Positions 1 through 9,731 of a DNA stretch of 64,000 bases are shown piece after piece. The first letter of the stretch is position 1. Each line of letters opens with the position of its first letter. A program made the translations under genes and the position numbers. This stretch comes from Escherichia coli (GTDB lineage: Bacteria > Pseudomonadota > Gammaproteobacteria > Enterobacterales > Enterobacteriaceae): the NCBI RefSeq assembly GCF_024502345.1, contig NZ_JALDNN010000001.1; one strand, written 5' to 3'. The notes under the pieces are model-generated. The model saw only the letters and a program-made list of their open reading frames with translations, made no database searches and was not told the DNA's origin.

Positions 1-281
1 GGCGTGTCTGCGGTTTTTCAACTATTCAGATACATCACTCCCATCACATTCATTCCTCCGCATCATAGGCATATAGGCTATATCACCTTGATATTTTTCT
101 TCTTCAGATAAAAACTGTTATCTATGTATACTTTTAAACCCAATCCGTGTAGAGTCTCTGCATAAGATAGTTTGCAGTTGCCACTTCAGCTTGCGCCATA
201 AACCGCCTGATTTTTGCCGCCACCTGGGTGATGCTGCCAACTTACTGATTTAGTGTATGATGGTGTTTTTGAGGTGCTCCA

Positions 282-557
282 GTGGCTTCTGTTTCTATCA
301 GCTGTCCCTCCTGTTCAGCTACTGACGGGGTGGTGCGTAACGGCAAAAGCACCGCCGGACATCAGCGCTATCTCTGCTCTCACTGCCGTAAAACATGGCA
401 ACTGCAGTTCACTTACACCGCTTCTCAACCCGGTACGCACCAGAAAATCATTGATATGGCCATGAATGGCGTTGGATGCCGGGCAACCGCCCGCATTATG
501 GGCGTTGGCCTCAACACGATTTTCCGCCATTTAAAAAACTCAGGCCGCAGTCGGTAA
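282..557 (+). CDS. insA: IS1 InsA
   Basis: 91-aa [27 protein letters not shown]..., recognised as IS1 InsA. Confidence 0.95.
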
Positions 558-979
558 CCTCGCGCATACAGCCGGGCAGTGACGTCATCGTCTGCGCGGA
601 AATGGACGAACAGTGGGGATACGTCGGGGCTAAATCGCGCCAGCGCTGGCTGTTTTACGCGTATGACAGGCTCCGGAAGACGGTTGTTGCGCACGTATTC
701 GGTGAACGCACTATGGCGACGCTGGGGCGTCTTATGAGCCTGCTGTCACCCTTTGACGTGGTGATATGGATGACGGATGGCTGGCCGCTGTATGAATCCC
801 GCCTGAAGGGAAAGCTGCACGTAATCAGCAAGCGATATACGCAGCGAATTGAGCGGCATAACCTGAATCTGAGGCAGCACCTGGCACGGCTGGGACGGAA
901 GTCGCTGTCGTTCTCAAAATCGGTGGAGCTGCATGACAAAGTCATCGGGCATTATCTGAACATAAAACACTATCAATAA
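476..979 (+). CDS. insB: IS1 InsB (expressed as InsAB' by frameshift)
   Basis: 167-aa ORF overlapping insA in the -1 frame, typical IS1 arrangement. Confidence 0.9.
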
Positions 980-994
980 GTTGGAGTCATTACC

Positions 995-1092
995 TAAGTC
1001 AGGTATAAATATAAGTGACATTGCCCAAGAATTCAAAACCTCGCGGCAAACCATTTTAAGAGCTAAAGCAAAAAATCAGACACCTGATATAT
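995..1092 (+). pseudogene. C-terminal HTH fragment of a recombinase/DNA-binding protein truncated by IS1
   Basis: Open frame running straight out of the IS1 right end: ...[31 protein letters not shown]. Resembles the C-terminal HTH of serine recombinases; no start codon of its own. Confidence 0.3.
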
Positions 1093-1191
1093 AAAAATAA
1101 TCTCGGTGTGAGATTCCTTACGTTTTCCAAGCCCCCCTTCCTAGCCTTAAATGGAAAGATACTTCTAATTATAGAATTTATATATCTTACC

Positions 1192-1359
1192 CTACGGTAG
1201 GGCTGGCCATTCAATATCCGGTGCAGTTGATGTATCAACACGGTTCAGCAACACCCGATACTTTTTCCAGGCTTCCAGCAACAAGGTTTCTTCCTCCGTT
1301 GCGATCTCCAGATCCACAGCATCCTGAAGCGGCGCTATATGCTCACTGGCTACCTGCAT
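1192..1359 (-). CDS. Hypothetical small acidic protein (55 aa), divergent from the CI-like gene
   Basis: [58 protein letters not shown]; below the 60-aa cutoff of the ORF track; sits in the cro position but shows no obvious HTH. Confidence 0.3.
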
Positions 1360-1439
1360 CAGGCTGTTTTTTGTTTCTTCCGCCTACCTGTAATACTGAT
1401 TGCGAGTTGAATGGTTTGATTTGTCATTATCAATTCCTA

Positions 1440-1537
1440 TTGGTATTGCAATGAATGAATAATAGCAATGCGTATTAATCCAAGCAATAGCAAAACGTGT
1501 TTTGACCATCAATACGCAAGCGTATAAATTAAAACTT
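1440..1537. promoter_or_regulatory. Operator/promoter region upstream of the CI-like gene
   Basis: AATAGCAAT at 1461-1469 and AATAGCAA at 1486-1493; palindromes ATTGCAAT (1445-1452) and ATACGC-AA-GCGTAT (1512-1525); TTGACC (1502-1507) followed by an AT-rich -10-like stretch ending ~9 nt before the ATG at 1538, suggesting a leaderless or near-leaderless transcript. Confidence 0.45.
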
Positions 1538-2230
1538 ATGAAAAAAGAAACTCTTGCTGATCGCTTAAACCTAGCGATGGAACAATCTGGAATGTCTCAA
1601 GGCGCTCTTGCAAAGGCGTCTGGCGTAGCTCAACCCACAATCTGGAGACTGACAAGCGGCAACGCTCGCGGCTCAACAAAAATTGTTGAAATAGCTAATG
1701 CATTGGGTGTTCGAACAGAATGGCTCTCATCAGGCATAGGCCCGATGAGAAATGACGGTCAACAATCAGGGAAGCCTGCTGTCAGCCATTCAAAATACTT
1801 CAAGATTGACGTTCTTGATATAGAAGTGAGTGCCGGGCCGGGAGTCATCAACCGTGAGTTTGTAGAAGTTCTACGCTCGGTTGAGTACTCGTTTGACGAT
1901 GCTCGTCACATGTTCGATGGTAGGAAGGCAGAAAATATCCGCATCATTAACGTACGCGGTGACAGCATGTCAGGAACGATCGAACCAGGTGATCTGCTGT
2001 TCGTTGATATCACGGTTAAATCTTTCGACGGTGATGGTATCTATGCGTTTCTGTATGACGACACCGCCCATGTAAAGCGCCTGCAAATGATGAAGGATAA
2101 GCTACTGGTTATCTCTGATAACAAGAGCTACTCACCGTGGGACCCGATCGAGAAAGACGAGATGAACCGGGTATTCATATTCGGTAAGGTTATTGGGAGC
2201 ATGCCGCAGACGTACAGAAAACACGGATAA
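1538..2230 (+). CDS. CI/LexA-type phage repressor (N-terminal XRE HTH, C-terminal S24 autopeptidase)
   Basis: 230 aa from MKKETLADRLNLAMEQSGMSQGALAKASGVAQPTIWRL (HTH) to ...NVRGDSMSGTIEPGDLLFVDI...AHVKRL (S24 Ser in GDSM and Lys in VKRL). The ORF track offers an upstream ATG at 1502, but that lies inside the promoter-like region. Confidence 0.85.
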   Translation: MKKETLADRLNLAMEQSGMSQGALAKASGVAQPTIWRLTSGNARGSTKIVEIANALGVRTEWLSSGIGPMRNDGQQSGKPAVSHSKYFKIDVLDIEVSAGPGVINREFVEVLRSVEYSFDDARHMFDGRKAENIRIINVRGDSMSGTIEPGDLLFVDITVKSFDGDGIYAFLYDDTAHVKRLQMMKDKLLVISDNKSYSPWDPIEKDEMNRVFIFGKVIGSMPQTYRKHG

Positions 2231-2312
2231 TCAGCCGCGTGTTGATGAGGCTTTTGGGTAATACGCTGAAGAAAATACCTTATAAAAAATAACATTACGG
2301 GAAAGGCAAAAA

Positions 2313-2576
2313 ATGAGTAATAAAACACTTGTTAAAAAATCAAATAACTGTGTCGATGCATACGCCGACGCGTTTGGCTACTCTTCGTTTGGTGACGGCT
2401 CTCAGCGCCTAGGTTCAATTTCTTTTTTTCATAATGTAACTGAATGGCCTGTTGATGAAAGTGACGATGTTGAGAACATAAAGTACAACATTGCAACCAT
2501 TAGAATGCCCGAAGAATTGATGCTTAAATTGGCTGACTTCATTCGCGACCAGCATGACAAAGCTAAAACAAACTAA
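2313..2576 (+). CDS. Hypothetical protein (87 aa), prophage cargo gene
   Basis: ORF with GGAAAGG ribosome-binding site 7 nt upstream; AT-rich compared with neighbours; no family recognised. Confidence 0.5.
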   Translation: MSNKTLVKKSNNCVDAYADAFGYSSFGDGSQRLGSISFFHNVTEWPVDESDDVENIKYNIATIRMPEELMLKLADFIRDQHDKAKTN

Positions 2577-2588
2577 TCGTAATTAATT

Positions 2589-3032
2589 ATGAAACACGAT
2601 TATTACGAAGCTCCAAACCTAAATGATAAAATTGCAAAGGCGGCAAAATCATTTTGTTTGCACTCCAGTGCGTCTTCCCAGCTAGCAGGTATATCTGGAA
2701 AAAGATGGGACATGCTACAATCAAGTGGTAGCAGTGGGTCTGGGAGTGATAACATGCCTGAAAAAGTTGCAAAACTGGAGTCCGATGTTGCTCATATCAA
2801 ACGAGACGTTGATGAACTTAAAACAGACGTTAAAGCTATCGACAAAAATATGATAACTATTCTTGCACGTCTGGACTCTATAAAAGAATCCTTAACAAAC
2901 AAGCCATCAAGTGATGCTGTCGATAGAAAGATTTCAGACGCAAAGCTTGCGGTATTGCTTGGTGTTCCAGCAATCATCGCTGCAGGAACAGGACTTTATA
3001 AGCTATCAATGTACTTTTTCTTTAGTGCTTAA
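2589..3032 (+). CDS. XhlA-like coiled-coil protein with C-terminal transmembrane helix
   Basis: C-terminal 92 aa MPEKVAKLESDVAHIKRDVDELKTDVKAIDKNMITILARLDSIKESL...AKLAVLLGVPAIIAAGTGLYKL: heptad-like coiled coil plus one hydrophobic helix, resembling phage hemolysin XhlA. The ATG at 2589 has no ribosome-binding site; the ATG at 2754 has GGGAG 7 nt upstream and may be the true start. Confidence 0.5.
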   Translation: MKHDYYEAPNLNDKIAKAAKSFCLHSSASSQLAGISGKRWDMLQSSGSSGSGSDNMPEKVAKLESDVAHIKRDVDELKTDVKAIDKNMITILARLDSIKESLTNKPSSDAVDRKISDAKLAVLLGVPAIIAAGTGLYKLSMYFFFSA

Positions 3033-3106
3033 GAAAATGCTCGCACCCTTGCATTAGGTAAAGCGATTTTTCATTCCCCATTACCCTCGCTCTTAACCAA
3101 TCATCT

Positions 3107-3136
3107 AAACCCGGCCACCGTGCCGGGTTTTCTTTT
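3107..3136 (+). terminator. Rho-independent terminator after the CI/cargo operon
   Basis: aaaCCCGGC-caccgt-GCCGGGttttctttt: GC stem, 6-nt loop and T-run, just downstream of the 3032 stop. Confidence 0.6.
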
Positions 3137-3261
3137 GCCCTCCCCTCATCACACACCGTTCAAAAAACCACCACGACCTCACTTCAGTTATCGCTATGCG
3201 ATGCAAGTCACAAAATTAATTCTTTTTGCTATCAAACATTTAATATCAAAACACATCAACT

Positions 3262-3308
3262 AATAGCAATAAGTATTGATATCACCAATAGCAATAGCTA
3301 TTATCACC
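3262..3308 (+). promoter_or_regulatory. Second operator set with pL-like promoter
   Basis: AATAGCAAT at 3262-3270; palindrome AATAGC-AATA-GCTATT at 3287-3302; TATCACC direct repeats at 3280-3286 and 3302-3308; TTGATA (3276-3281), 17-nt spacer, TATTAT (3299-3304) on the + strand. Confidence 0.4.
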
Positions 3309-3497
3309 ATATCGCAACAACACAACGATACGGCAACCACCTGATTCACCGTTGCGATGACCGCTTAGATCCGCAGCTTGAATTTCAGCAGGCTTCGGGG
3401 AGTGCGAGGGATGAAACGGACGCGTGAACGTCGGTGTGACCAGCTGAAATCAACTCAACATTTCATACCTTAGTCGCTTCAACGAGGCGGCTTAGTT

Positions 3498-3788
3498 ATG
3501 ACAACCGGCGGCCATCCACCGCCTGAATACGCGCAGAAGTCTTTATATGTTCAGCAGCCCAGCTTACGGGCAGGAGTTTTTATGGTTCATCAACATTACG
3601 GAACGCAGACCGTTAATCGCGGTGCGGTCATGCCAGGAATGCTGGTCAAACGCAAAGATGGTACCTGGACTGCATCAGCTAATTTACGCGGACGACTTTA
3701 TCTGCATCGCGGCATTGAGCGCACTTATACCCGTGACTTGCTCGTGGAAGTTTTTCTCGACGGACGCGGCAACGGTCTGAATCACTAA
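3498..3788 (+). CDS. Hypothetical prophage protein (96 aa)
   Basis: ORF with GAGG about 10 nt upstream; no family recognised; an internal start MVHQHYG at 3582 is also possible. Confidence 0.35.
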   Translation: MTTGGHPPPEYAQKSLYVQQPSLRAGVFMVHQHYGTQTVNRGAVMPGMLVKRKDGTWTASANLRGRLYLHRGIERTYTRDLLVEVFLDGRGNGLNH

Positions 3789-3863
3789 TCCCCTTTCCTG
3801 TTTTCCGAATCAGCCTGGCATTCCGCGGGCGATTTTTTCACAGCCATTTTCAGGAGTTCAGCC

Positions 3864-4148
3864 ATGAACGCTTATTACATTCAGGATCGTCTTGAGGCTC
3901 AGAGCTGGGCGCGTCACTACCAGCAGATCGCCCGTGAAGAGAAAGAGGCAGAACTGGCAGACGACATGGAAAAAGGCCTGCCCCAGCACCTGTTTGAATC
4001 GCTATGCATCGATCATTTGCAACGCCACGGGGCCAGCAAAAAAGCCATTAGGCGCGATCACTTTCATCTACTCCGTTACAAAGCGAGGCTGGGTATTTCC
4101 CGGCCTTTCTGTTATCAGAAATCCACTGAAAGCACAGCGGCTGGCTGA
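3864..4148 (+). CDS. Hypothetical prophage protein (94 aa)
   Basis: [31 protein letters not shown]... with AGGAG 9 nt upstream. Confidence 0.5.
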
Positions 4149-4175
4149 GAAGATAAATAATAAACGGGAGGCGGT

Positions 4176-4367
4176 ATGCACAAAGCATCTCCTGTTGAGT
4201 TAAGAACGAGTATTGAGATGGCACATAGCCTTGCTCAAATTGGAGTCAGGTTTGTGCCAATACCAGTAGAAACAGACGAAGAATTTCATACGTTAGCCAC
4301 ATCCCTTTCACAAAAGCTGGAAATGATGGTGGCGAAAGCAGAAGCAGATGAGAGAGACCAGGTATGA
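4176..4367 (+). CDS. Hypothetical prophage protein (63 aa)
   Basis: ORF MHKASPVELRTSIEMAHSLAQIGVRFVPIPVETDEEF... with GGGAGG 5 nt upstream. Confidence 0.5.
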   Translation: MHKASPVELRTSIEMAHSLAQIGVRFVPIPVETDEEFHTLATSLSQKLEMMVAKAEADERDQV

Positions 4368-4377
4368 CAACCACTGA

Positions 4378-4656
4378 ATGCATTTTTCTGGCAGCGGGCT
4401 TCATATTCTGTGTGCTTATGCTTTCCGTTTCCATGACCTCAGACACACCTGGGCAAGCTGGCTGATTCAGTCAGGCGTCCCATTATCAGTGCTTCAGGAA
4501 ATGGGCGGATGGGAGTCCATAGAAATGGTTCGTAGGTATGCTCACCTTGCGCCTAATCATTTGACAGAGCATGCGAGGAAAATAGACGACATTTTTGGTG
4601 ATAATGTCCCAAATATGTCCCACTCTGGAATTATGGAGGATATAAAGAAGGCGTAA
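4378..4656 (+). pseudogene. Tyrosine integrase, C-terminal fragment only
   Basis: ...[46 protein letters not shown]... carries the integrase catalytic box (HxLRHT, trailing Y) but only ~80 aa remain; ends 16 bp from the 3' end of argU, the expected attachment site. Confidence 0.8.
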
Positions 4657-4671
4657 CTGATTGAATTGTAA

Positions 4672-4748
4672 TGGCGCGCCCTGCAGGATTCGAACCTGCG
4701 GCCCACGACTTAGAAGGTCGTTGCTCTATCCAACTGAGCTAAGGGCGC
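4672..4748 (-). tRNA. argU: tRNA-Arg (anticodon UCU)
   Basis: Reverse complement reads GCGCCCTTAGCTCAGTTGGATAGAGCAACGACCTTCTAAGTCGTGGGCCGCAGGTTCGAATCCTGCAGGGCGCGCCA (77 nt, anticodon TCT, CCA end). Confidence 0.95.
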
Positions 4749-4990
4749 GTTGATACCGCAATGCGGTGTAATCGCGTGAATTATACGGTCAACCCTTGCT
4801 GAGTCAATGGCTTTTGATCTGGTTGCTGAACAAGTGAACGACCGCGTCTGATTTTCTGATTTATTTCGCTATAGCGGCAAACAAACACACACCGCTGCGC
4901 GTCTGAATCAAGAAAACCCGTATTTTCATGTATCAAAGTACAATTTACCGCCCTAACGGAAAATTGTCCGCTCCTATGAGACTGGTAACT

Positions 4991-5623
4991 ATGAAACCAA
5001 CGTCGGTGATCATTATGGATACTCATCCTATCATCAGAATGTCTATTGAAGTTCTGTTGCAAAAAAACAGTGAATTGCAGATTGTCCTGAAAACGGATGA
5101 TTACCGCATAACCATCGATTATCTCCGAACCCGTCCTGTTGATTTAATCATTATGGATATAGACTTGCCCGGAACAGACGGTTTTACCTTCCTGAAAAGG
5201 ATCAAACAAATCCAGAGCACAGTGAAAGTGTTATTTTTATCATCGAAATCAGAATGCTTTTATGCTGGCAGAGCGATACAAGCTGGTGCTAACGGTTTTG
5301 TCAGTAAATGCAATGATCAGAATAATATTTTTCATGCCGTTCAGATGATCCTCTCCGGATACACGTTTTTTCCCAGCGAAACGCTTAACTATATAAAAAG
5401 CAATAAATGTAGTACGAATAGTTCAACGGTCACTGTGCTATCTAATCGTGAAGTGACCATATTACGTTATCTGGTTAGCGGATTATCTAATAAAGAAATT
5501 GCCGATAAGTTATTACTTAGCAATAAAACAGTTAGTGCGCATAAATCTAATATTTATGGCAAGCTAGGTTTGCATTCAATTGTAGAGCTTATCGACTACG
5601 CCAAATTATACGAATTAATATAA
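4991..5623 (+). CDS. fimZ: Fimbrial response regulator FimZ (LuxR-type)
   Basis: 210 aa from MKPTSVIIMDTHPIIRMSIEVLL...; receiver domain plus C-terminal LuxR HTH. The ORF track's upstream start at 4928 is probably an overcall. Confidence 0.9.
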   Translation: MKPTSVIIMDTHPIIRMSIEVLLQKNSELQIVLKTDDYRITIDYLRTRPVDLIIMDIDLPGTDGFTFLKRIKQIQSTVKVLFLSSKSECFYAGRAIQAGANGFVSKCNDQNNIFHAVQMILSGYTFFPSETLNYIKSNKCSTNSSTVTVLSNREVTILRYLVSGLSNKEIADKLLLSNKTVSAHKSNIYGKLGLHSIVELIDYAKLYELI

Positions 5624-5720
5624 TATTAATTATAATTGATCATAAATATCGCATCCGCTTTCGCCGGTGATGCTGCCAACTTACTGATTTAGTGTATGAT
5701 GGTGTTTTTGAGGTGCTCCA

Positions 5721-5996
5721 GTGGCTTCTGTTTCTATCAGCTGTCCCTCCTGTTCAGCTACTGACGGGGTGGTGCGTAACGGCAAAAGCACCGCCGGACA
5801 TCAGCGCTATCTCTGCTCTCACTGCCGTAAAACATGGCAACTGCAGTTCACTTACACCGCTTCTCAACCCGGTACGCACCAGAAAATCATTGATATGGCC
5901 ATGAATGGCGTTGGATGCCGGGCAACCGCCCGCATTATGGGCGTTGGCCTCAACACGATTTTCCGCCATTTAAAAAACTCAGGCCGCAGTCGGTAA
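5721..5996 (+). CDS. insA: IS1 InsA
   Basis: Protein identical to copy 1 InsA. Confidence 0.95.
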
Positions 5997-6418
5997 CCTC
6001 GCGCATACAGCCGGGCAGTGACGTCATCGTCTGCGCGGAAATGGACGAACAGTGGGGATACGTCGGGGCTAAATCGCGCCAGCGCTGGCTGTTTTACGCG
6101 TATGACAGGCTCCGGAAGACGGTTGTTGCGCACGTATTCGGTGAACGCACTATGGCGACGCTGGGGCGTCTTATGAGCCTGCTGTCACCCTTTGACGTGG
6201 TGATATGGATGACGGATGGCTGGCCGCTGTATGAATCCCGCCTGAAGGGAAAGCTGCACGTAATCAGCAAGCGATATACGCAGCGAATTGAGCGGCATAA
6301 CCTGAATCTGAGGCAGCACCTGGCACGGCTGGGACGGAAGTCGCTGTCGTTCTCAAAATCGGTGGAGCTGCATGACAAAGTCATCGGGCATTATCTGAAC
6401 ATAAAACACTATCAATAA
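5915..6418 (+). CDS. insB: IS1 InsB
   Basis: Protein identical to copy 1 InsB. Confidence 0.9.
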
Positions 6419-6600
6419 GTTGGAGTCATTACCCGAAAAATGAAGCTTTCAATCTCAGCGACCTCAGCGACGGTGCGCCTCACCTTCGCAAGAGGTCGCT
6501 TCACGCGATAAATCTGAAACGAAACCTGACAGCGTGCCCCGCTTCTGACAAAATAGGCGCATCCCCTTCGACCTACGTAACAGATGGAATCCTCTCTCTG

Positions 6601-7467
6601 ATGGCAGCAAAGATTATTGACGGTAAAACGATTGCGCAGCAGGTGCGCTCTGAAGTTGCTCAAAAAGTTCAGGCGCGTATTGCAGCCGGACTGCGGGCAC
6701 CAGGACTGGCCGTTGTGCTGGTGGGTAGTAACCCTGCATCGCAAATTTATGTCGCAAGCAAACGCAAGGCTTGTGAAGAAGTCGGGTTCGTCTCCCGCTC
6801 TTATGACCTCCCGGAAACCACCAGCGAAGCGGAGCTGTTGGAGCTTATCGATGCGCTGAATGCCGACAACACCATCGATGGCATTCTGGTTCAACTGCCG
6901 TTACCGGCGGGTATTGATAACGTCAAAGTGCTGGAACGTATTCATCCGGACAAAGACGTGGACGGTTTCCATCCTTATAACGTCGGTCGTCTGTGCCAGC
7001 GCGCGCCGCGTCTGCGTCCCTGCACCCCGCGCGGTATCGTCACGCTGCTTGAGCGTTACAACATTGATACCTTCGGCCTCAACGCCGTGGTGATTGGCGC
7101 ATCGAATATCGTCGGTCGTCCAATGAGCATGGAACTGTTGCTCGCAGGTTGCACCACTACCGTGACTCACCGTTTCACTAAAAATCTGCGTCACCACGTA
7201 GAAAATGCCGATCTGTTGATCGTTGCCGTCGGCAAGCCGGGCTTTATTCCTGGTGACTGGATCAAAGAAGGCGCAATTGTGATTGATGTCGGCATCAACC
7301 GTCTGGAAAATGGCAAAGTTGTGGGCGACGTCGTGTTTGAAGACGCGGCTAAACGCGCCTCATACATTACGCCTGTTCCGGGCGGCGTTGGCCCGATGAC
7401 GGTTGCCACGCTGATTGAAAACACGCTTCAGGCGTGCGTTGAATATCATGATCCACAGGGTGAGTAA
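6601..7467 (+). CDS. folD: Methylenetetrahydrofolate dehydrogenase/cyclohydrolase
   Basis: 288 aa, [23 protein letters not shown]... Confidence 0.95.
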
Positions 7468-7468
7468 C

Positions 7469-7681
7469 ATGGCGACATTTTCTTTAGGTAAACATCCGCA
7501 CGTTGAGCTGTGCGATTTGCTGAAACTGGAAGGCTGGAGCGAAAGCGGCGCGCAGGCGAAAATCGCGATTGCCGAAGGCCAGGTGAAAGTCGACGGTGCG
7601 GTTGAAACGCGCAAACGCTGCAAAATCGTCGCCGGTCAGACAGTGAGTTTTGCAGGTCACAGCGTACAGGTTGTTGCCTGA
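7469..7681 (+). CDS. ybcJ: S4-like RNA-binding protein YbcJ
   Basis: 70 aa, MATFSLGKHPHVELCDLLKLEGW...; start 2 nt after the folD stop. Confidence 0.85.
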   Translation: MATFSLGKHPHVELCDLLKLEGWSESGAQAKIAIAEGQVKVDGAVETRKRCKIVAGQTVSFAGHSVQVVA

Positions 7682-7788
7682 TCCCTTTCCCGGCCTGTAT
7701 CAACAGGCCGGTTCTCTTTTCAGACTTTTGCCCTCTACGCCCCGTTCATCCATGCTGATAGCATCGACATTTTGCCGAAGTGACCATC

Positions 7789-8310
7789 ATGCCAACCGTT
7801 ATTACGCACGCCGCCGTTCCCCTATGCATTGGTTTAGGGTTGGGTTCGAAAGTCATCCCTCCGCGTCTGTTATTTGCCGGAATCATCCTGGCGATGCTGC
7901 CCGACGCCGACGTATTGTCGTTTAAATTTGGCGTTGCTTACGGCAATGTTTTTGGTCATCGCGGGTTTACCCATTCGCTGGTGTTTGCGTTTGTTGTCCC
8001 GCTGTTATGTGTGCTGATTGGACGCCGATGGTTCAGGGCTGGGCTGATTCGCTGCTGGCTGTTTTTAACCGTCTCGTTGCTATCGCACAGCATGCTGGAT
8101 TCGGTAACCACTGGCGGTAAGGGTGTTGGCTGGCTGTGGCCGTGGTCAGATGAACGCTTTTTCGCTCCCTGGCAGGTGATTAAAGTCGCGCCGTTTGCAT
8201 TGTCTCGTTACACCACAGCGTACGGGCATCAGGTGATTATTTCTGAATTGATGTGGGTGTGGTTGCCGGGGATGCTACTGATGGGAATGCTGTGGTGGCG
8301 CAGACGATAA
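7789..8310 (+). CDS. ybcI: Inner-membrane protein YbcI
   Basis: 173 aa from MPTVITHAAVPLCIGLGL...; hydrophobic. Confidence 0.85.
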   Translation: MPTVITHAAVPLCIGLGLGSKVIPPRLLFAGIILAMLPDADVLSFKFGVAYGNVFGHRGFTHSLVFAFVVPLLCVLIGRRWFRAGLIRCWLFLTVSLLSHSMLDSVTTGGKGVGWLWPWSDERFFAPWQVIKVAPFALSRYTTAYGHQVIISELMWVWLPGMLLMGMLWWRRR

Positions 8311-8334
8311 CCGGATGCGAAAACTCGCATCCGG
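8311..8334. terminator. Bidirectional hairpin between convergent ybcI and cysS
   Basis: CCGGATGCGA-aaac-TCGCATCCGG, a perfect 10-bp stem. Confidence 0.5.
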
Positions 8335-8345
8335 CAATAGCGCAA

Positions 8346-9731
8346 TTACTTACGACGCCAGGTGGTCCCTTGCGGGCCATCTTCCAGCACGATCCCCATC
8401 TCGTTAAGACGGTCACGTGCCGCATCTGCCGCCGCCCAGTCTTTCGCTTTACGGGCATCCAGACGCTGTTGAATTAACGCTTCAATCTCAGCCACTTCGC
8501 TGTCGTCTGCCTGCGCGCCGCTTTGCAGGAACGCTTCCGGTTCTTGCTCCAGCAGGCCCAATACAGCGGAAAGTTTACGCAGGTGAGATGCCATTGCATT
8601 CGCCGCTGCCATATCTTCTGCTTTCAGACGGTTCACTTCACGGGCCATATCAAACAGCACGGAATAGGCTTCCGGGGTGTTGAAATCGTCGTCCATCGCT
8701 TCAATAAAGCGCGCTTCAAACGCTTCGCCACCGGCAGGCGCAACGGTTTTATCTGTGCCGCGCAGCGCAGTGTAGAGGCGCTCCAGCGCCGCACGCGCCT
8801 GCTTCAGGTTCTCTTCGCTGTAGTTCAGTTGGCTGCGATAGTGGCCCGACATCAGGAAGTAACGCACGGTTTCCGCGTCGTAGTATTTCAGCACATCGCG
8901 CACGGTAAAGAAGTTACCCAGCGATTTGGACATCTTCTCGCGGTCAACCATCACCATTCCGGAGTGCATCCAGTAGTTAACATACTGACCATCATGGGCA
9001 CAGGTGGACTGCGCGATTTCGTTCTCGTGGTGCGGGAACATCAGGTCTGAACCGCCGCCGTGGATATCAAAGTGGTTACCCAGCTGCTTGCAGTTCATTG
9101 CCGAACATTCAATGTGCCAGCCAGGACGGCCCGCGCCCCACGGAGACGGCCAGCTCGGTTCGCCCTCTTTCGACATCTTCCACAGAACGAAGTCCATCGG
9201 GTTGCGTTTGTCGTCGACCACGTCAACGCGCGCGCCTGCCTGCAGCTGGTCGAGATCCTGACGCGACAGCACACCATAAGTCGGATCGGTCGGGACGTCG
9301 AACATCACGTCGCCGTTGTCAGCCACATAAGCGTGACCTTTGGCGATCAGTTGTTCAGTGAGTTCAATAATTTCTGCGATATGGTGCGTCGCGCGCGGCT
9401 CCATATCCGGGCGCAGAATGTTCAAAGCATCAAAATCTTTGTGCATTTCGGCGATCATGCGATCCACCAGCGCCACAAAGCTTTCGCCATTTTCATTGGC
9501 GCGTTTGATGATTTTGTCGTCGATATCGGTAATGTTGCGCACATACTTCAGTTTATAGCCGAGGAAACGCAGATAGCGCGCAACGACGTCAAAAGCAACA
9601 AAGGTACGCCCGTGACCGATATGACAGAGATCGTAAACGGTGATTCCACACACATACATGCCGACTTCCCCGGCGTGAATAGGCTTAAATTCCTCTTTTT
9701 GGCGTGTCAGAGTATTGAAGATTTTTAGCAT
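8346..9731 (-). CDS. cysS: Cysteinyl-tRNA synthetase
   Basis: 461 aa, [42 protein letters not shown]... (HIGH motif). Confidence 0.95.

Follow-up and report, generated by a model that had tools for sequence, protein, structure and literature searches.

A Lambda-Type pL/oL Region and Its N-Less Leader Upstream of kil in an Escherichia coli Prophage Remnant

Introduction

How is an early-left operon, including xis and int, expressed in a lambda-like prophage whose pL leader comes without N or a nut site? The question is raised by a very common prophage family of Escherichia coli that carries a lambda-type N leader of this kind; the leader is present in 2221 of 5426 complete E. coli genomes and is unannotated in all of them. 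The copy considered here belongs to a decayed lambda-like prophage remnant (DLP12-family, Bievrevirus-type) located beside argU in the E. coli chromosome. It was analyzed within the window, i.e., the whole 64-kb stretch of DNA to which all coordinates refer. The initial annotation of the locus had proposed a pL-like promoter with an operator in its spacer, a structured leader, and a short arginine-rich open reading frame (micro-ORF) that might be either the decayed 5' end of an N-like gene or a functional small peptide.

This article describes the promoter, the operators, the leader and the micro-ORF in the light of related phages and prophages. The reading that is considered very probable is that 3262–3304 is pL with two operators, oL1 and oL2, from which a long untranslated leader runs into kil, and that the micro-ORF is fortuitous. 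The arrangement of pL and oL is textbook and ordinary, and the operator sequence is new. A notable by-product was a hairpin element beginning at 3461, which is conserved across many phages and displays compensatory changes.

Relatives of the Locus and Their Variation

Phage PhiR68_2 matches the region with 100% identity, and identity is 95–96% in 4A7 (genus Bievrevirus), Lambda_4C10, 1W, 3W, D2 and Perceval. The latter is an active prophage of strain LF82, whose lysogen expresses cI together with the cargo gene behind it (PMC9928086). In all of these phages, among them the intact relatives PhiR68_2, 4A7 and Perceval, the gene order is cI, cargo, pL, leader, kil, gam, bet and exo. The initial annotation had named an unrelated gene at this position of the intact parental phage as evidence against its reading; the intact relatives indeed carry kil at this place and no N gene. 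No protein of the N type (about 100 aa with an N-terminal arginine-rich motif) is annotated as the first pL gene in 4A7, whose only annotated antiterminator is Q and which has a DLP12-type nin and late region.

Sequence variation was followed in 93 unique aligned variants taken from IMG/VR and phage records. Their loci were retrieved with the 22-mer 3419–3440, so that this stretch is invariant by data selection and its invariance says nothing on constraint. Among the variants, diversity amounts to 0.02–0.045 in the leader and to 0.003, 0.007 and 0.051 at the first, second and third codon positions of kil, respectively. The diversity of the leader is thus about half that of third positions in kil, which points to some constraint on the leader and in this respect counts against the reading preferred here.

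Organization of the Prophage Remnant

On the plus strand the remnant contains cI, two cargo ORFs, a terminator, pL, the leader, kil, a gam fragment, a small ORF of family phrog_292 and the C-terminal part of an integrase gene, in this order; argU comes next, on the minus strand (Table 1). A fragment of a tail-fibre-assembly gene directly abuts the truncated cro at about 1397, indicating another deletion junction in the remnant. The fragment includes a strong match to the Rfam family IS009 (177.7 bits; 1226–1426, minus strand). A search of positions 1–9000 against Rfam (E <= 1) gave no match within 3150–3860. Two directly oriented copies of IS1 (about 253–1020 and 5692–6460), whose InsA and InsB ORFs are identical, flank the remnant, argU and a fimZ-like response regulator gene (4928–5623); the next gene is folD at 6601, so that the expected fimbrial operon is apparently missing.

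Table 1. Positions of the features discussed in the text (window coordinates).
Feature	Position	Strand	Basis or remark
Truncated cro stub, about 10 codons	1398–1426	minus	Adjoins oR
oR, three 16-bp operators (1461–1476, 1486–1501, 1511–1526)	1461–1526		25 bp apart, between truncated cro and cI
cI-like repressor gene, intact, 230 aa, HTH and S24/UmuD-like domain	1538–2230	plus	Matches to phrog_4 and phrog_6201
Intrinsic terminator closing the cI-cargo operon, directly upstream of pL	3107–3130	plus	9-bp stem with 6 GC pairs, then T-run
Possible weak third operator-like site, inverted	3217–3233		Suggested by the inverted-repeat search and by a counterpart beside oR in 4A7
Operator oL2, AATAGCAATAAGTATT	3262–3277		25 bp upstream of oL1; overlaps first two bases of the -35
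pL promoter, -35 TTGATA (3276–3281), 17-nt spacer, -10 TATTAT (3299–3304)	3276–3304	plus	Sigma-70 promoter scan
Operator oL1, AATAGCAATAGCTATT	3287–3302		Overlaps spacer and part of the -10
5' part of pL leader, homologue of the lambda pL-N leader (its first ~150 nt)	3311–3460	plus	z = 4.66
5'-terminal stem ATCGCAAC / GTTGCGAT	3311–3358	plus	Inverted-repeat search, predicted folding
Local hairpin CCGC-AGCUUG...CAGGCU-U-GGGG	3371–3400	plus	Predicted folding
Micro-ORF, 20 codons, ATG 3411 to TAG 3471–3473, encodes MKRTRERRCDQLKSTQHFIP	3411–3473	plus	Non-conserved chance ORF in leader
Conserved RNA-like element: CATACC, HP1, TTAGTTATGA, HP2	3461–3523	plus	Phage and IMG/VR comparisons
HP1, long hairpin	3464–3500 (apical stem 3472–3492)	plus	Part of the 3461–3523 element
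HP2, GGCGG / CCGCC	3507–3511 / 3519–3523	plus	Loop CCATCCA
kil, KilR-family FtsZ inhibitor, first real gene of the pL operon	3582–3788	plus	phrog_294, 1.5e-36; GGAG 6–9 nt upstream of start
argU, tRNA-Arg(UCU)	4672–4748	minus	Adjoins prophage remnant

The Promoter and Its Operators

The near-consensus sigma-70 promoter of the initial annotation was recovered at the same coordinates and is the second-best sigma-70 match in 1000–5000 (10/12). In this interval 4 promoter-like matches were found against 7.1 expected from shuffles, i.e., the motif alone is not above chance; promoter and palindrome rise above it because of their context, namely the operator copies shared by pL and oR. The palindrome in the spacer is present as described and extends over the first four bases of the -10. 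The 16-bp motif AATASSMANNVSTRTW, which is AATA-SS-N4-SS-TATT-like, has five sites in the window, two at pL and three upstream of cI, with a 25-bp spacing at both places, where 0.06 would be expected by chance, the pattern having been derived from the same five sites that it counts. The number of strand matches is six, since 1461–1476 matches on both strands. A repeat search linked the oL and oR copies independently in phage 4A7 and also in the window, and the oR sequence is identical in the intact phage PhiR68_2.

The designation as a pL-type promoter with a repressor operator inside it is also borne out by position. The promoter follows the intact CI-like gene, two cargo genes and a terminator, all in the same orientation, and heads the early-left genes, and this synteny is identical in the intact phages. 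At least two operators lie over the -35 and -10 and match oR of the same immunity region, and the cognate repressor with its helix-turn-helix and S24 autocleavage domain is encoded alongside. The CI-like protein, labeled as an XRE family regulator in RefSeq, matches phrog_4 (5e-69), the CI-like family phrog_6201 (2e-46) and a UmuD-like family (5.5e-7). The 16-bp operators lie across the -35 and across the spacer and -10, and this geometry, together with the triplet of like sites at oR, suggests that bound CI would keep pL off. The LexA/UmuD-type self-cleavage domain suggests that DNA damage should switch pL on, RecA-stimulated cleavage of CI presumably leading to its derepression.

Comparison among phages of different immunity also helps to place the start of the transcript. 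The immunity segment (operators, -35 and -10) is swapped among at least four types, and similarity resumes at 3311. One of them has a -35, a -10 and operators of its own in this position, and its similarity to the window family begins at 3311; in another one it resumes at 3345 instead. A contig with type-B immunity and a different leader confirms a module boundary at about 3311. The point at which similarity resumes suggests that this boundary coincides with the transcription start, which is predicted at about A3311.

A Diverged Homologue of the Lambda pL-to-N Leader

Between the promoter and kil lie about 270 nt (3311–3581) without a conserved ORF. A global alignment of 3311–3549 with the lambda sequence from +1 to the N ATG, with end gaps penalized, scored 104 against 56.8 +/- 10 for shuffled sequences (z = 4.7, 0/500), and the first 150 nt alone gave nearly the same result with the lambda leader (z = 4.66, 0/500 shuffles). 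The best local block, 3385–3418, aligns with lambda +82 to +113 and is at equal distance from pL in both. By these alignments the leader is homologous to the one between pL and N in lambda, diverged but collinear with it. The leaders of phi80, HK225, HK639, HK022 and CobraSix are not similar to it above the level of shuffles, except at short shared 5' and 3' ends, and no second copy of the leader was found in the early region of 4A7, including the sequence downstream of pR, or elsewhere in the window.

The description of the leader as structured holds for local hairpins and fails for the whole: folding of 3305–3500 (z = -0.8) and of 3311–3600 (z = -0.1) equals that of shuffled sequences. The 8-bp inverted repeat ATCGCAAC (3311–3318) / GTTGCGAT (3351–3358) reported before is exact, with 32 nt between its arms. 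A short hairpin, AUCG 3311–3314 with CGAU 3326–3329, is an alternative to this stem, and either of them may stabilize the mRNA. The substitutions A3311G and C3313T produce G-U pairs that are compatible with pairing, and no compensatory change was seen in the stem among the variants. The same applies to the local hairpins of the leader in general, where variation within the family (93 variants) was compatible only. In the hairpin at 3371–3400 the common variants are located in the loop, in a bulge or at a wobble pair, and the region of its 3' arm, i.e., 3385–3418, is the part most similar to lambda. Covariation within the family, as between 3416 and 3461, was considered and discarded: it reflects linkage of haplotypes, and 21 of the 93 variants show a mismatch.

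Two further observations concern the composition of the leader. C(UUCG)G at 3393–3398 has its variable base at 3395 (T in 49, C in 42 and A in 2 variants), which is the N of the UNCG-type tetraloop motif; apart from the closing pair no stem supports it, and the predicted fold shows the motif bulged out where two helices join. Of the first 40 nt, 15 are C and 5 are G, and given this C-rich, G-poor composition Rho could act on the untranslated leader.

The Micro-ORF, a Probably Fortuitous Frame

The 20-codon ORF with an upstream GGGGAG exists as annotated, apart from the distance between them: GGGGAG occupies 3397–3402 and the gap to the ATG is 8 nt instead of 9. Neither end of the ORF is stable in the family. 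The start codon is ATG in 12, GTG in 80 and GGG in 1 of the 93 variants; the stop codon has C in place of T3471 in 63 of them (TAG to CAG), in which case the frame continues in phase into kil; and the frame from 3411 comprises 20, 29, 67–69, 80, 122 or 125 codons. A 5-nt insertion interrupts it in 4 variants. The start, stop and frame that a conserved small protein should preserve among relatives are therefore all variable, and the proposal of a functional peptide finds no support in them. That the micro-ORF encodes a functional small arginine-rich peptide is barely credible: the Shine-Dalgarno-like GGGGAG with an ATG in the window and a slight third-position bias of the variation would fit such a role, against which stand the unstable length and start, the insertion and the lack of any family match. 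Furthermore, the stop codon's T lies unpaired within a conserved hairpin and is polymorphic.

The second proposal was that of a decayed N. In its explicit form the micro-ORF would be the surviving 5' end of an N-type gene, including its arginine-rich motif, and a deletion would have removed the rest of N together with tL1, fusing codon ~17 to the sequence beyond tL1. The peptide R-x-R-E-R-R-x-D does closely resemble residues 7–14 of lambda N (RTRERRCD and RRRERRAE; BLOSUM62 score 27), its ORF is the first one after pL, where N would be, with GGGGAG at a suitable place, and 4 of the 6 common substitutions inside it are synonymous. Moreover, the switch at 3461 is to an element that follows the terminator T-tract behind N or the first pL gene in phi80, HK225, HK639 and many IMG/VR contigs. 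Against this, 3411–3460 faces a non-coding part of the lambda leader in the alignment, some 110 nt ahead of the N start codon, no boxB hairpin precedes the micro-ORF, and its ATG is the minority allele. The best score of the leader against a panel of arginine-rich motifs of N and Nun was 32 (27 for the micro-ORF alone), no better than dinucleotide shuffles (mean 27; 127 of 1000 reach 32).

Searches for an N-like relative were likewise negative. Queries of PHROGs with the micro-ORF and with the long 125-codon ORF returned Kil only, and no family matched the micro-ORF peptide; tblastn of the micro-ORF over 50,697 phage records found just the 16 N-less phages; and a search of 5.8 billion proteins recovered only alternative ORF calls of the same locus, with this N-terminus on nothing N-like. 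Survival of an N head in the micro-ORF is accordingly regarded as improbable. What stands of the N-type interpretation is its looser sense, in which the region is what is left of an N-type leader. The frame beginning MKRTRERR is fortuitous, located in a CG-rich part of the leader; it is not a gene and not recognizably the head of N.

The True Start of kil

The assignment of kil agrees with RefSeq and with the annotation of 4A7. In 46 of the 93 variants an open frame of 125 codons extends from GTG 3411 as far as the stop of kil, and some deposited annotations (Perceval, PhiR47_2, PhiR26_1, PhiR30_1) contain an over-long Kil that spans the leader. Five frame-breaking indel events occur in 3498–3581 and none in kil among the 93 variants. 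These indels, together with the diversity pattern, place the true start of kil at ATG 3582, and the occasional merging of the leader into an over-long Kil ORF by annotation pipelines is, on this analysis, wrong.

The Hairpin Element Upstream of kil

From 3461 onward the sequence is clearly homologous to that of phi80, HK639, CobraSix, S9-5, KO-TP1 and ENT1; identity reaches 95% with HK225 over 3461–3523 and about 84–86% with phi80 over 3461–3521. The element is common to phi80, HK225, HK639, CobraSix and phages of Klebsiella, Enterobacter and Salmonella. It was located in the comparison loci L127 (2501–2560), L128 (2501–2547), L129 (2501–2563), L131, L132, L136 and L137 and in more than 70 IMG/VR variants; no Rfam family matches it. 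In the phages named and in most of 73 distinct IMG/VR variants it starts directly after the T-tract of a strong intrinsic terminator, which follows N or the first pL gene (tL1A in phi80), and it is placed upstream of kil. Hence the window family has a lambda-like 5' leader joined directly to the post-terminator element, without N or the terminator.

The HP1 stem exists in roughly nine or ten compensatory versions around a conserved loop ending in GAG, and RNAalifold detected double changes at 6 of 20 pairs. ATG 3498 takes part in the pairing at the base of HP1. It does not vary among distant phages and would open a mini-ORF (MTTGGHPPP), behind which CobraSix (-1 nt) and S9-5 (-3 nt) have a different frame and indels occur frequently. 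At 3498–3581 it is the nucleotides that are conserved and not a peptide.

In a further reading the leader is more than a relic, either because its 150-nt 5' part is a third kind of cis-acting RNA serving transcription of the whole pL operon or because the HP1/HP2 element is an undescribed regulatory or processing RNA. That one of the two applies is considered unlikely, and of them the HP1/HP2 RNA is perhaps the more likely. If it were true, the element could act as a gate for kil-module expression past the first terminator.

Predicted Transcription Without N, nut or put

The leader contains neither boxA (CGCTCTTA-like) nor a boxB hairpin: the positions of lambda boxA and boxB read CACCGTTG and GACCGCTTAGATCCGC, and the boxB stem cannot form. 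A counterpart of nutR downstream of pR and cro was absent as well, since no repeat common to the pL leader and the pR operon was found in 4A7, where about 30 nt separate cro from the gene that follows. Between pL and exo of 4A7 no strong intrinsic terminator was detected, which suggests that expression from pL needs no N over this distance. Further along the pL operon of this phage (L001, 8179–8193) there is a strong intrinsic terminator, GGAGCTACAGGCTCC followed by a T-run, upstream of a DksA-like gene, xis and int.

This last terminator, the family's lack of N and the moderate sequence constraint on the leader would suit an explanation by which 3311–3460 is a cis-acting RNA that modifies RNA polymerase like the put sites of HK022, allowing N-less phages to read through terminators. 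Indeed, sister phages with type-B immunity carry putL in the same slot, from pL to the CATACC element: in the IMG/VR contigs L174, L187 and L199 a genuine putL is found there, and the first ~22 transcribed bases are as in the window. A covariance model built from 8 putL/putR sequences, which scores known put sites at 60–99 bits, found no match at E <= 10 in the window leader or in six N-less loci, even with the filters off; the best filters-off match in 4A7 reached 9.2 bits and lies inside cI. With the put-type leader there is weak similarity (z = 2.5), restricted to the two ends. There is also no second copy downstream of pR in the early region of 4A7 and hence no putL/putR pair, the leader folds no better than shuffles and shows no compensatory changes, and the stretch from pL to exo offers no strong terminator to be read through. 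A put-like function of the leader is for these reasons deemed very improbable.

The preferred reading thus remains that of an untranslated leader of ordinary kind. Transcription from about 3311 would proceed through ~270 nt into kil without an antiterminator, and in the intact relatives it would continue into gam, bet and exo in the same way.

The comparison of leaders also revealed that one immunity type (-35 TTGACG, operators AACAACTnTnGTTGTT) is linked to a putL-containing leader in L174, L187 and L199 and to a window-type leader in L094. Both kinds of leader start with CATCG(A/C)AAC and both precede the CATACC element. Since one immunity type may be joined to either of them, early-left leaders behave as exchangeable cassettes.

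Comparison With Known Systems

The remnant still keeps repressor, operators, pL and kil together. Such a module would make the inhibition of division SOS-inducible, and losing the repressor would then be toxic. In lambda, pL follows cI, rexA and rexB, and the placement and orientation of pL in the remnant are identical. Several operators over the -35 and -10 that match those of oR are likewise common to both; the operator sequence of the remnant (AATAGC-N4-sGTATT, 16 bp, 25-bp spacing) differs from that of lambda, which implies a different immunity. The pL-to-N leader of lambda, which contains nutL and is RNase III-sensitive, is about as long as the window leader and alignable with it collinearly. 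It has boxA, the boxB hairpin and the N gene, all three of which are missing here, and the window leader ends at kil, with cIII, ral and sieB absent.

The put RNAs of HK022 and HK639 and the window leader both reside in early-left operons of N-less lambdoid phages. However, none of the invariant blocks of put (CGAACGGC, GTCGG, GGCG-GG, CAAT) is present in the window leader, which moreover has no copy in the right operon. In phi80 (pL-nutL-N-tL1A-tL1B-kil) the sequence right after tL1A, in the mapped t-L1 region upstream of kil, is homologous to 3461–3581 of the window, whereas the N gene and tL1A of this phage have no equivalent in the window.

A small RNA, KilS, is annotated upstream of kilR in the Rac prophage of E. 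coli K-12 (L134, 5406–5503); it is not alignable with the window leader, and a literature search retrieved no paper on it. The upstream region of Rac as a whole does not align with the leader either, and in Rac three genes, sieB, ydaF and ydaG, separate the repressor from kilR. The kilR locus nonetheless offers a parallel to the remnant, in that a cryptic prophage has likewise kept its repressor and a KilR-family inhibitor behind a long non-coding upstream region.
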